Virus record (IMG/VR): IMGVR_UViG_2698536337_000007
Strand: one strand, 5' to 3'
Source: a virus
Taxonomy: Duplodnaviria; Heunggongvirae; Uroviricota; Caudoviricetes
DNA: 9,601 bases
Under the pieces are notes generated by a model. That model had not been told where the DNA came from, did no database searches, and saw only the letters and a list, made by a program, of their open reading frames with translations. The position numbers and the translations under genes were made by a program. Shown here piece after piece: positions 3,433-6,134 of this stretch (positions are counted from its first letter, which is position 1; each line of letters opens with the position of its first letter).

Positions 3433-4491
3433 ATGCTTAATACTGTAAAAATATCCAGTTGTGAGTTAATCAACGCCGACTGCCTGGAATTTATCCGGTC
3501 GTTACCCGAAAATTCTGTTGACCTGATAGTCACGGACCCGCCGTACTTTAAAGTGAAGCCTGAGGGCTGGGATAACCAGTGGAAGGGCGACGATGATTAC
3601 CTGAAGTGGCTGGACCAGTGTCTGGCGCAGTTCTGGCGGGTGCTGAAACCTGCCGGAAGTCTTTACCTGTTCTGTGGTCATCGCCTGGCATCTGATATCG
3701 AAATCATGATGCGTGAACGCTTCAGTGTGCTGAACCATATTATCTGGGCGAAGCCGTCCGGACGCTGGAACGGATGCAACAAGGAAAGCCTGCGGGCGTA
3801 TTTCCCCGCCACAGAGCGCATTCTGTTCGCGGAACATTATCAGGGGCCGTATCGTCCGAAAGATGCCGGGTATGCGGCGAAGGGCAGTGCACTGAAACAG
3901 CATGTGATGGCCCCGCTGATTTCTTACTTTCGTGATGCGCGAGCTGCCCTGGGGATAACGGCAAAACAGATTGCAGATGCCACAGGAAAGAAAAACATGG
4001 TGTCGCACTGGTTCAGTGCCGGTCAGTGGCAGTTGCCGAATGAAAGCGATTATCTGAAATTACAGGCGCTGTTTGCCCGGGTGGCAGAAGAGAAGCATCG
4101 GCGTGGTGAACTGGAAAAGCTCCACCACCAGCTGGTGGATACGTATACCTCACTGAACCGGCAGTATGCGGAGCTGCTGAGTGAATATAAACATCTGCGG
4201 CGGTATTTTGGCGTGACGGTGCAGGTGCCGTATACCGATGTGTGGACGCATAAACCGGTGCAGTTCTATCCCGGGAAACATCCGTGCGAAAAACCGGCAG
4301 AAATGCTGCAGCAGATAATCAGCGCTAGCAGTCGTCCGGGTGACCTGATTGCAGATTTTTTCATGGGGTTGGGTTCGACAGTGAAAGCGGCACTGGCGCT
4401 CGGGCGTCGTGCAATTGGCGTTGAGCTGGAGACTGAACGTTTTGAGCAGACGGTTCGGGAAGTACAGGATTTAGTCAGCCAGAACGGATGA
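3433..4491 (+). CDS. Orphan DNA amino-methyltransferase (N6-adenine or N4-cytosine), beta-class motif order
   Basis: 352 aa. Catalytic DPPY motif near the N-terminus (DLIVTDPPYF) and SAM-binding FxGxG-type motif near the C-terminus (ADFFMGLGST). No restriction endonuclease partner is visible in the window. Confidence 0.85.
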   Translation: MLNTVKISSCELINADCLEFIRSLPENSVDLIVTDPPYFKVKPEGWDNQWKGDDDYLKWLDQCLAQFWRVLKPAGSLYLFCGHRLASDIEIMMRERFSVLNHIIWAKPSGRWNGCNKESLRAYFPATERILFAEHYQGPYRPKDAGYAAKGSALKQHVMAPLISYFRDARAALGITAKQIADATGKKNMVSHWFSAGQWQLPNESDYLKLQALFARVAEEKHRRGELEKLHHQLVDTYTSLNRQYAELLSEYKHLRRYFGVTVQVPYTDVWTHKPVQFYPGKHPCEKPAEMLQQIISASSRPGDLIADFFMGLGSTVKAALALGRRAIGVELETERFEQTVREVQDLVSQNG

Positions 4492-4531: not shown

Positions 4532-4607
4532 GGCCCTTTAGCTCAGTGGTGAGAGCGAGCGACTCATAATCGCCAGGTCGCTGGTTCAAATCCAGCAAGG
4601 GCCACCA
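4532..4607 (+). tRNA. ileZ: tRNA-Ile2 (anticodon CAU, lysidine type; formally CAU could also be Met)
   Basis: Cloverleaf folded by hand: acceptor ggccctt/aagggcc, anticodon loop ctCATaa, T-loop ttcaaat, encoded CCA. Close to my recollection of E. coli ileX. Symbol given by positional analogy to the Stx-phage ileZ-argN-argO arrangement. Confidence 0.85.
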
Positions 4608-4614
4608 TCACATA

Positions 4615-4691
4615 CCGCCATTAGCTCATCAGGAAAGAGCGCCAGCCTTCGAAGCTGGCTGCGCGGGGTTCAAGTCCCCGATGGCGGTCCA
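4615..4691 (+). tRNA. argN: tRNA-Arg (anticodon UCG)
   Basis: Acceptor ccgccat/atggcgg (C1:G72), D-stem gctc/gagc, anticodon stem ccagc/gctgg with loop ctTCGaa, T-arm cgggg-ttcaagt-ccccg, discriminator t, encoded CCA. Confidence 0.8.
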
Positions 4692-4704
4692 TTATCTGCA
4701 TTCA

Positions 4705-4781
4705 GCGTTGTTAGCTCAGCCGGACAGAGCAATTGCCTTCTAAGCAATCGGTCACTGGTTCGAATCCAGTACAACGCGCCA
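4705..4781 (+). tRNA. argO: tRNA-Arg (anticodon UCU, reads AGA/AGG)
   Basis: Acceptor gcgttgt/acaacgc, anticodon stem attgc/gcaat with loop ctTCTaa, T-arm actgg-ttcgaat-ccagt, encoded CCA. Confidence 0.85.
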
Positions 4782-4795
4782 CACTTATTTTCCCT

Positions 4796-4821
4796 GGCTC
4801 GCTTTTGCGGGCCTTTTTTTT
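4796..4821 (+). terminator. Intrinsic terminator after the tRNA cluster
   Basis: Stem ggctcgc / gcgggcc (one G-U pair), loop tttt, followed by 8 T. Confidence 0.55.
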
Positions 4822-5193
4822 AAATGTCTCACAATTCAGACGGTTGACAGTTGTCTGTTTTGCGGGGAGTTTGTTAAAAGAAACTGGCATGGTGAATCCC
4901 CCTGTGCGGAGGGGCAATCAGCGAGTAGGTATATGGGATAATCGCGGATTCAGGTGCTGGTACTGAATTCACCGGGAGGCACCCGGCATCATGCANNNNN
5001 NNNNNNNNNNNNNNNNNNNNNNNNNNNNNNNNNNNNNNNNNNNNNNNNNNNNNNNNNNNNNNNNNNNNNNNNNNNNNNNNNNNNNNNNNNNNNNNNNNNN
5101 NNNNNNNNNNNNNNNNNNNNNNNNNNNNNNNNNNNNNNNNNNNNNNNNNNNNNNNATAGCGCCACTCTCCAGCCCTCTCCGGAGGGGCTTTTC
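4821..5193 (+). repeat. Copy A of a duplicated structured element (candidate small RNA: promoter-like TTGACA, internal hairpins, terminator-like 3' end); interrupted by a 160-nt N-run
   Basis: 4831-4995 is about 97% identical (4 mismatches in 165 nt) to 5893-6057. TTGACA at 4844-4849. Terminator-like hairpin agccctc..gaggggct at 5171-5189 followed by tttt. Confidence 0.65.
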
Positions 5194-5360
5194 TGTGCCG
5201 GATACATCACAGTTTCTGGAACCTTAGGTACTACAGTATCAGTCAGGGTGCTATATTTTCAGATGTGATGAAAGCCTGTCAGCAGGCAGGNNNNNNNNNN
5301 NATGTTTGTCAAAAATAAAAGTTCTGTTAAGTATTGATTGAGTGTTTGTTATACGGTCTA

Positions 5361-5687
5361 ATGGTTTTTTCAGCATTAAATATTTATCATTCATATGGTG
5401 TGGGTAGAGTGAATATTGATGAGGCGTCGGGGTGTTTCATCCTTAGGCAGCGTATTGATATAGTCAATGCAGCACGAGCAAAGGCCTTCAGCCGTTTGAC
5501 AGTTTTGTTCTGTACTCCTGATCGTCTTTCGGGAAGAGACGTTATTATTCTGAATAGTGATGCTATACAGAGGGTTTGCGATGAGTTCATGGTTGCTAAT
5601 TCAGAATTATTTGCTCTTGTTCAGGAGTACAACAGAATAGCCAGGACCTGTGGTATGGATGAACTTCGGATTACTCATCTGGGGTAG
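5361..5687 (+). CDS. Hypothetical protein (108 aa from the ATG at 5361; ORF track opens at the TTG at 5334), cargo ORF in the stx slot
   Basis: Longest ORF in the unique segment between the two repeat copies. It contains 3 AGA, 3 AGG, 3 ATA and 1 CGA codons, matching the adjacent tRNA set. Weak SD; no recognisable family. Confidence 0.35.
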   Translation: MVFSALNIYHSYGVGRVNIDEASGCFILRQRIDIVNAARAKAFSRLTVLFCTPDRLSGRDVIILNSDAIQRVCDEFMVANSELFALVQEYNRIARTCGMDELRITHLG

Positions 5688-5883
5688 ATACATATCTGGA
5701 TTATCACCTGTTACGGTAAAAAGTGATTGCTTACTGTTTTTGTGAATGGCATTGCAGCAGCCGGATAATGTCAGTGCTGGCTGACGGTGTGCTGGTGGCG
5801 GGTGTGGTGGTTGTTGCTTTCCCGTTGCTGAAAAAGAAAACGCCAGACTGTTAGCCGGGTATCAGTTAGCGGGAGAAATTTTT

Positions 5884-6116
5884 AAATACTTCACAATTCA
5901 GGCGGTTGACTGTTGTCTGGTTTGCGGGGAGTTTGTTAAAAGAAACTGGCATGGTGAATCCCCCTGTGCGGAGGGGCAATCAGCGAGTAGGTATATGGGA
6001 TAATCGCGGATTCAGGTGCTGGTACTGAATTCACCGGGAGGCACCCGGCACCATGCAATGGCACATAGCGCCACTCTCCAGCCCCTCTCCGGAGGGGCTG
6101 TTTATATTGATTTTGT
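5884..6116 (+). repeat. Copy B of the duplicated structured element (candidate small RNA), uninterrupted
   Basis: TTGACT at 5906-5911; hairpins cccct..agggg (5961-5976) and ccggg..cccgg (6034-6048); terminator-like 8-bp stem agcccctc/gaggggct (6080-6099) followed by the U-rich tail gtttatattgattttg. Confidence 0.65.
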
Positions 6117-6134
6117 CAGATGTGAGTAAACTCC

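Follow-up and report, generated by a model that had tools for sequence, protein, structure and literature searches.

Two copies of STnc100 in a lambdoid late region

The DNA analyzed here, referred to as the window, is a stretch of 9,601 nucleotides (nt) from a virus of the Caudoviricetes (IMG/VR record IMGVR_UViG_2698536337_000007). It is a lambdoid late region in which the genes for a DUF968 protein, RusA, the antiterminator Q, a methylase, and tRNAs are followed by a first copy of a repeated element (copy A), cargo open reading frames (ORFs), a second copy (copy B), and the genes for IraM, an esterase, and a holin. Both repeats are genes of the prophage small RNA (sRNA) family STnc100. This element is already known: it has long been in Rfam, and its homologues in enterohemorrhagic and enteropathogenic Escherichia coli (EHEC and EPEC), EcOnc27/sRNA103 and PasD, have been recovered with Hfq and detected on Northern blots, so that the finding is a rediscovery. 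The flanking of one ORF by the two copies, as judged by comparison with related loci, is most probably a scaffolding artefact, and we consider it likely that the STnc100 identity and this scaffolding origin together explain the locus. The two elements and their parts are as follows:

4796-4822, plus strand: terminator-like hairpin that closes the tRNA cluster just 5' of copy A (stem 4796-4813, then TTTTTTTT)
4817-4995, plus strand: STnc100 copy A (Rfam RF02076; alignments with copy B and with prophage Sp5 of E. coli O157:H7 Sakai)
4830-4839, 4844-4849, and about 4873-4882: CACAATTCAG, TTGACA, and an A-rich stretch in the 5' leader of copy A
4887-4894 with 4987-4994, 4898-4914, 4947-4970, and 4972-4986: helices P1, P2, P4, and P5 of copy A
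5156-5195, plus strand: linker and intrinsic-terminator-like hairpin of copy A (stem 5171-5189, then TTTTCTGT; terminator scan)
5879-6105, plus strand: STnc100 copy B, complete (Rfam RF02076, minimum free energy fold, terminator scan)
5892-5901 and 5906-5911: CACAATTCAG and TTGACT in the leader of copy B
5949-5956 with 6049-6056, 5960-5976, 6009-6032, and 6034-6048: helices P1, P2, P4, and P5 of copy B
6079-6100: terminator stem of copy B, preceded by the linker and followed by TTTAT

An earlier note, made from the letters of this DNA alone, had described the two repeats as near-identical elements with GC-rich hairpins and a terminator-like end, and this description holds. Of the 165 positions in the direct repeats 4831-4995 and 5893-6057, only 4 differ (97.6% identity), and alignment thus agrees with the count given in the note (4840 A/G, 4849 A/T, 4858 T/G, and 4989 T/C, copy A given first); the GC-rich hairpins are present, as are the terminator-like hairpins with their stems at 5171-5189 in copy A and 6079-6100 in copy B. 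The longest exact repeat shared by the copies is 130 nt, compared with at most 15 nt in 20 shuffles. The homology is wider than this core: in copy A it spans 4817-4995 and 5156-5193, and in copy B it spans 5879-6102; after the interruption of copy A it restarts at 5156/6065 and continues past the terminator-like hairpin to about 5193/6102.

The family assignment rests on a covariance-model search of the window with Rfam RF02076 ("Gammaproteobacterial sRNA STnc100"), whose gathering score is 47 bits. A search of Rfam had been suggested in the earlier note, and it placed both copies above this score: copy B reached 132.4 bits (E=1e-29), and copy A 94.9 bits although it is shortened by a run of N. 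The identical, gap-free equivalent of copy A in a related locus (L037; the L numbers are our labels of individual loci) reached 123.6 bits, and in L037, L043, L038, and L065 the linker and terminator of copy A are joined to its body without a break. The location also agrees with the family, as a Q-type gene (2039-2860), tRNAs (4532-4781), and a holin gene (9060-9353) lie in the window, and the same layout is found in RefSeq relatives and in Sp5.

Conservation of the fold

The predicted minimum free energy fold of copy B (-74.6 kcal/mol) is the Rfam structure, in which an 8-bp closing stem encloses a CCCCC/GGGG hairpin, a variable region, the hairpin 6009-6032, and a CCGGG/CCCGG hairpin. For an analysis of covariation, family members were gathered from IMG/VR by a core pattern, which yielded 143 distinct elements and, at 95% identity, 85 representatives; when 14 source loci of representatives were scanned with Rfam, their STnc100 copies scored 57-170 bits, all above the cut-off. 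Among the 85 representatives, standard pairs occupy 96.6% of the cells, compared with 41-47% when the partners are slid by 1-3 columns, and double-sided changes are found in 209 cells, compared with 7-46 in the slid controls. The covariation score was reached by 0 of 500 shuffles, and nine pairs covary, mainly in P1 and P4. The proposal that the repeats are structured RNA genes ending in a terminator is thereby borne out, as both copies are STnc100 and the fold is backed by covariation.

Three of the four differences between the copies fall into the 5' leader. The remaining one, 4989 T versus 6051 C, lies in the P1 helix, where it changes a G-C pair of the closing stem to G-U with retention of pairing, and the same polymorphism occurs in 11 of the 85 representatives. 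The check for compensatory changes at the variant positions that the note had recommended therefore favors a conserved structure, since the only difference in a helix keeps the pairing.

Transcript ends and the late promoter

The best reference for the transcript ends is the STnc100 gene of the Sakai prophage Sp5, which is the EcOnc27 of Tree et al. (2014) and is termed sRNA103 in EDL933. EcOnc27 scores 207.7 bits with RF02076 and begins 75 nt after stx2B; it is followed by the convergent anti-sRNA AsxR, whose match in Sakai (88.1 bits) served as positive control for a covariance-model search of the window for AsxR and AgvB (RF02703/RF02702), which gave no match at E<=1. On Northern blots, EcOnc27 gives bands of about 235/247 nt, of which the 247-nt band is destabilized without Hfq, and it shows a peak in Hfq cross-linking and analysis of cDNA (CRAC; PMC4104026 supplement).

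The TTGACA and TTGACT hexamers of the two copies had been read as -35 elements, and this assignment is not supported: the hexamer is part of a block CACAATTCAG..GTTGACNGTTG that is conserved in the EcOnc27 of Sp5, where the 5' end lies further upstream. In Sp5, the distance from the hexamer to the terminator would give an RNA of about 183 nt, and because the 235/247 nt of EcOnc27 exceed this length, the hexamer probably lies inside the RNA. The 5' end of EcOnc27 would then be located 10-20 nt upstream of CACAATTCAG. The hexamers found 16-18 nt after TTGACN are GGAGTT, GAGTTT, and AGTTTG, none of them a usable -10, and a scan with the sigma-70 consensus gave no site at 4844 or 5906. By analogy to EcOnc27, the RNAs of the window would start near 4830/5892, after a -10-like TTAAAT/TAAAT(G/A) hexamer, and would have a length of about 210-215 nt.

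A start closer to the core was also considered. Among the 85 representatives, 57 have a best sigma-70-like match whose end is 7-11 nt ahead of the core. At the foot of P1, a good TTGAC(A/G)-17/18-TAAATT is present in divergent subfamilies, and TTGTCT-18-TAAAAG, which is TG-extended, in the window type. For the E. coli-type copies we did not rely on this internal promoter with a start at P1, because the bands of EcOnc27 at about 235/247 nt are longer than the expected 180 nt or so, and because the A-rich stretch belongs to the Rfam model. The start may lie either upstream of CACAATTCAG or at the foot of P1.

Their similar size, their terminator-ended layout, and the presence of the TTGACA/TTGACT hexamer had also suggested that the units are pR'-tR' leader modules, comparable to lambda 6S RNA or StxS, which were duplicated when two late regions were joined. 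This explanation is extremely improbable. The consensus scan did not detect a sigma-70 site at the hexamer, and Q (2039-2860) has its own leader candidate directly behind it, at 2861-2965, with TTGATT-16-TAAATT from position 2866 and a strong terminator at 2941-2960, whereas the starts of the copies are separated from the Q stop codon by 1.9 and 3.0 kb, with the methylase gene and three tRNAs in between. Moreover, the element of Sp5 sits after stx2B and is distinct from the pR' leader RNA StxS, which lies at the 5' side (PMC7873438). The candidate for the real pR'-tR' unit is thus the region of about 2866-2960 beside Q. A leader RNA of about 60-70 nt after Q would be the positional counterpart of StxS and lambda 6S RNA; with Rfam, this region gave a sub-threshold Trp_leader match only.

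Gaps in the scaffold and the arrangement of the two copies

Beyond the two elements, the following features determine whether copies A and B are truly neighbors:

4996-5155: run of 160 N, most likely an assembly gap; relatives have ATGGCAC
5196-5290, plus strand: backbone after copy A, which in gap-free relatives leads to a degenerate second and a full third STnc100 and then to the esterase gene
5291-5301: run of 11 N at the junction of the copy A backbone and the cargo cassette
6772-6894: run of 123 N between the end of the segment 5302-6771 and the backbone
6895-6912, plus strand: 3' half of the terminator of the third STnc100, the remainder of which is under the N-run; from 6895 on, the window matches L037 from 6438 downward on the reverse strand

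With the run at 9431-9498, the window contains four N-runs, and each of them lies at a break of homology. Near-identical contigs from IMG/VR were used for comparison. The gap-free loci L037, L043, and L065 are 99.8-100% identical to the window on both N-run sides, and L038 is 97.9% and 100% identical; all four have 7 nt (ATGGCAC) in place of the 160 N. Eleven fetched loci carry the T variant that is specific for copy A, followed by exactly ATGGCAC, and in the fetched loci the spacer between body and terminator is ATGGCAC in 79 of 79 instances. Versions with a spacer of 140-170 nt were absent from IMG/VR and the JGI metagenome contigs, as were versions of copy A with a spacer of 145-170 nt from the GTDB species genomes, where a 41-mer specific to copy A gave no match either. 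What had been taken as a masked 160-nt insertion in copy A is thus an N-run, most likely an assembly gap where relatives have 7 nt, and no variant of about 160 nt exists in the collections scanned. The same discrepancy is found in the lysis region, where the 68 N at 9431-9498 correspond to 34 nt in L037 and L065 and to 34-36 nt across L002, L003, L004, L025, L037, and L065, which again suggests that the N-runs stand for estimated gaps and not for masked sequence.

The remaining two N-runs enclose the segment 5302-6771 with the cargo ORF, copy B, and IraM. In L037 and L065, 380 nt are found in place of the 11 N, this segment, and the 123 N, and within these 380 nt lie two STnc100-like elements, the second of the backbone, which is degenerate (30 bits), and the third, which is full (161 bits; L037 6422-6631). 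At the 11-N run, the left flank leads into GCGTATCGG... in each of 15 fetched instances, and GATATTGTTGAAAA...-type sequence stands before the right flank in each of 27. The junction of tail and cargo was absent from 5,426 complete E. coli genomes and, with a spacer of 0-30 nt, from IMG/VR and the JGI metagenome contigs. The segment itself has counterparts of 99.9-100% identity in L025 and L062, where it follows another RusA-Q-tRNA module (94% and 88% identical to that of the window) or, directly, a methylase-tRNA module, and the contig of L025 breaks exactly at the equivalent of 6771. The exact 108-residue cargo ORF starts 357-535 nt after a Q gene in 10 of the 10 distinct chromosomal contexts among those listed, and the nine of these in which the pattern found STnc100 have exactly one copy, downstream of the ORF. 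STnc100 copies that are truly on one contig are 59-75% identical, compared with 97.6% for A and B. The start of the DUF1737 gene is present twice, at 6721-6771 and 7124-7174 (84% identity), and since the sequence of the first stops at the N-run, it is the broken 3' end of an inserted contig.

We propose that the source is a scaffolded short-read assembly in which the repeats of STnc100 and DUF1737 caused breaks. From the late region of a second prophage, a contig of 1.47 kb with the cargo ORF, copy B, and IraM would have been placed into a repeat-induced gap of the backbone prophage, which would comprise the tRNAs, copy A, two further STnc100-like elements, and the esterase gene. As to the view that the copies flank ORF 5361-5687, their direct orientation is confirmed, but their continuity depends on the N-runs 4996-5155 and 5291-5301 and is contradicted by all comparative evidence. 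RecA-mediated excision or amplification of the segment of about 0.7 kb, which had been envisaged, is not supported, given that the cis arrangement is most likely produced by scaffolding.

Some observations weigh against this conclusion. Real sequence might in principle be masked by the N-runs; in L025 and in L062, the two cassettes are found together on one scaffold, with their order reversed and single Ns at the joints; and direct STnc100 copies, tandem or dispersed, occur in real contigs with a spacing of 260-3300 nt and in numbers of up to five per contig, so that a cis pair is not implausible in itself. The arrangement could then be real, in that a recent recombination of two lambdoid late regions left a pair of STnc100 genes around a cargo cassette of about 0.9 kb, and if so, the dose of the sRNA would be doubled and the cassette could be excised or amplified by RecA. 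It fits this idea that direct copies with small genes between them are found in gap-free loci, for example L080, L106, L157, L158, and L174, that a form with tRNAs, a single STnc100, and IraM, as predicted for the deletion product of A and B, exists in L071, L083, L113, and L133, and that both cassettes are kept within single scaffolds in L025 and L062. The single-copy forms, however, are equally explained by exchange of modules between phages. Every junction that is needed for a real arrangement lies under an N-run, and the lengths of these runs clash with the relatives of 99.8-100% identity (160 versus 7 nt, and 68 versus 34 nt). The junction is absent from the complete genomes, IMG/VR, and JGI metagenome contigs mentioned above, and the identity of natural co-resident copies is 59-75% and not 97.6%. 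We therefore regard a real pair as unlikely and retain the scaffolding artefact as the explanation.

A practical consequence is that repeated STnc100 copies break short-read assemblies, and that scaffolds may in this way show false "duplications" next to cargo genes; where a window of this kind has N-runs, these should be taken for gaps and not for masked insertions.

As a separate observation on arrays, L106 (4349-8555), L096, and L157 of IMG/VR have three to five same-strand STnc100 matches beside isrI matches, and the STnc100 matches are separated by small ORFs, some of them Cys-rich, and by other ORFs.

STnc100 as a recombination joint beside a cargo slot

The recombination idea survives in a weaker form, which concerns exchange between phages and not a RecA-mediated excision of this segment. 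When the 5' flank (tRNA or cargo) and the 3' flank (tail or IraM) of STnc100 are combined, all four combinations are found in N-free DNA, with counts of 11, 14, 4, and 2, and many further flanks exist besides these. All four combinations occur, as homologous exchange inside the element would give, and this makes STnc100 a conserved recombination joint for cargo exchange, where the cassettes on either side reassort among lambdoid prophages. The STnc100 unit is far better conserved than its flanks, and for this reason the unit, at the 3' edge of a cargo slot downstream of the late-operon tRNAs, may serve as homology patch for the exchange of cassettes. The genes around the slot are as follows:

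2039-2860: Q-type antiterminator of PF03589, 273 residues (profile search)
3433-4491: DNA methylase
4532-4781, plus strand: three prophage tRNA genes (ileZ-type CAT, Arg-TCG, Arg-TCT) before the cargo slot (ARAGORN, Rfam, RefSeq relatives)
5302-5878, plus strand: cargo cassette with ORFs 5361-5687 and 5723-5854
5361-5687: ORF of 108 residues, full-length member of phrog_2873, function unknown
5723-5854: DUF3927/TciB-like ORF
6135-6470, minus strand: IraM-type anti-adaptor gene, cargo downstream of copy B (NCBIfam NF007393, 162 bits; RefSeq annotation of relatives)
7134-8987: DUF1737-SASA esterase
9060-9353: holin

Between the last tRNA and STnc100, the slot is empty in the case of copy A, contains phrog_2873 and the TciB-like gene in the case of copy B, and is occupied by stx2AB in Sp5; in the relatives L001-L003, the cargo cassette directly follows the tRNAs and thus is in the slot that holds stx2AB in Sp5. 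ORF 5361-5687 had no match in Pfam or NCBIfam, only phrog_2873, and no similarity to the IraM-like protein; it is absent from the annotated features of the RefSeq relatives examined, and the exact protein is found in 7,259 blocks of the collection. The IraM-type gene belongs to the RssB inhibitors that stabilize RpoS, and the Pfam annotation in relatives is PmrD.

Further observations concern the neighborhood. On the minus strand, at 6913-6947, a strong convergent terminator (CCTTGCCGCCCGCGTCTCCCAGCGCGGGCTTTTTTT) abuts the third STnc100, which is the position of the AsxR/AgvB-type anti-sRNAs beside EcOnc27 in Sp5; in the neighborhood of this third element, AsxR and AgvB gave no match, and only a sub-threshold OmrA-B match was found (6912-7000, 25 bits). 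The Q-type protein has two PF03589 stretches (the protein is about twice as long as the model of about 87 residues, which it matches twice) and a signal of a DnaJ-type CXXCXGXG zinc finger. The tRNA at 4532-4607 is called Met (CAT) by ARAGORN, and it is a tRNA-Ile of the ileZ type, presumably with a modified anticodon, in RefSeq relatives and Sakai. Upstream of the DUF968 gene, at 34-115, there is a sub-threshold isrK-like match (25.7 bits versus a gathering score of 50); in Gifsy-1 of Salmonella, IsrK lies near the antQ region.

Proposed role of the elements

Each unit would encode an RNA of about 210-230 nt that consists of a 5' leader with an A-rich stretch, a junction that is closed by the 8-bp stem and carries the hairpins, a linker, and a Rho-independent terminator. 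By homology to EcOnc27 and PasD, this RNA may be a discrete, Hfq-bound transcript that acts in trans in lysogens, and during lytic growth the Q-modified polymerase coming from pR' would read through the STnc100 terminator. EcOnc27 has been reviewed as an Hfq-associated prophage sRNA (PMC7873438; also PMC12711010), and its CRAC peak spans P5, the linker, and the terminator when the coordinates of Tree et al. are placed on NC_002695.2 with an offset of +135, which is fixed by the position of AsxR. For the EcOnc27/PasD homologues, chimeras with many mRNAs have been obtained by ligating and sequencing interacting RNAs (RIL-seq), and an STnc100 homologue has been followed by quantitative PCR in outer membrane vesicles. 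In eight Sakai prophages, Tree et al. had already described sRNA genes that lie downstream of pR' where morons are inserted.

The P2 and P5 hairpins, the loops, and the GGUGAAU junction are invariant, while P3, P4, the linker, and the flanks diverge strongly across subfamilies, and the invariance of P2 and P5, if genuine, would be unusual for a purely base-pairing sRNA. It may be that the structured core acts mainly in cis, or binds a protein or the polymerase in the late transcript, for example as insulator terminator, processing site, or antitermination-type element, and not as a trans base-pairing sRNA. The invariant parts are also the upper-case ones in the Rfam consensus, the position inside the late operon is fixed, the elements are often found in arrays, and the literature on EcOnc27 contains no validated direct target. 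Yet the sequences were collected with a pattern that demanded the P2 and P5 hairpins, so that their invariance in this sample is partly circular. In addition, the homologues were recovered on Hfq, are destabilized without Hfq, and form the RIL-seq chimeras, and the gene after copy B lies on the opposite strand, which leaves no constant downstream gene to be controlled. A role of this kind therefore seems unlikely to us. The more specific idea that the GGUGAAU junction, together with the CCCCC-UGUGC-GGAGGGG and CCGGG-AGGCA-CCCGG core, is a module directed at cis functions, a protein, or the polymerase, and is not the base-pairing body, is slightly more doubtful still; if true, it would explain why the element keeps its place at the cargo slot beside stx and why it occurs in arrays. 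The trans-acting, Hfq-associated sRNA thus is the role that we favor.

Comparison with known systems

Mosaic lambdoid phage genomes have conserved boundary sequences between their modules. STnc100 resembles these in being a conserved stretch that is combined with alternative cassettes in all combinations, and it differs in that it is a functional RNA gene itself and not a boundary of genes. Lambdoid pR'-tR' leaders, such as lambda 6S RNA and StxS, share with the window copies that a short, terminator-ended RNA is encoded in the late operon and that Q-modified polymerase must read through it; the window copies, however, neither adjoin Q nor sit at the late promoter.

To the STnc100 consensus, the window copies correspond by a full-length model match, the closing stem, the hairpins, the terminator, and the context of a prophage late region. 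Their variable P3 is shorter than in the Rfam consensus and the Sp5 members, with about 11-14 model positions deleted.

EcOnc27/sRNA103 of Sp5/933W (Tree et al., 2014; Gruber and Sperandio, 2015) has the 5' block TCACAATTCAG..GTTGACAGTTG in common with the window copies, and the two also share TCACAATTCAG..GTTGACNGTTG, their A-rich stretch, and all of the core. Its place, like that of the window copies, is the 3' edge of the cargo slot that follows the ileZ-argN-argO tRNAs. In contrast to the window, where the copies have no AsxR/AgvB match, the slot of Sp5 holds stx2AB and AsxR follows; the window copies also have other linker and terminator sequences and a shorter P3 insert.

PasD1 and PasD2 of EPEC E2348/69 are in different prophages and are 4 nt apart (PMC8550237; Pearl Mizrahi et al., 2021), and a preprint describes them as related to STnc100, structurally homologous, and linked to PF03589 Q genes (Zhu, Shabalina and Storz, 2026). 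As the preprint states that BLAST from PasD fails to retrieve STnc100, the window copies are STnc100 proper and not PasD, with which they were compared by description only. PasD1 and PasD2 are nevertheless Hfq-dependent prophage sRNAs as well, and such a four-nucleotide pair in one genome is a direct precedent for the pair of copies A and B.

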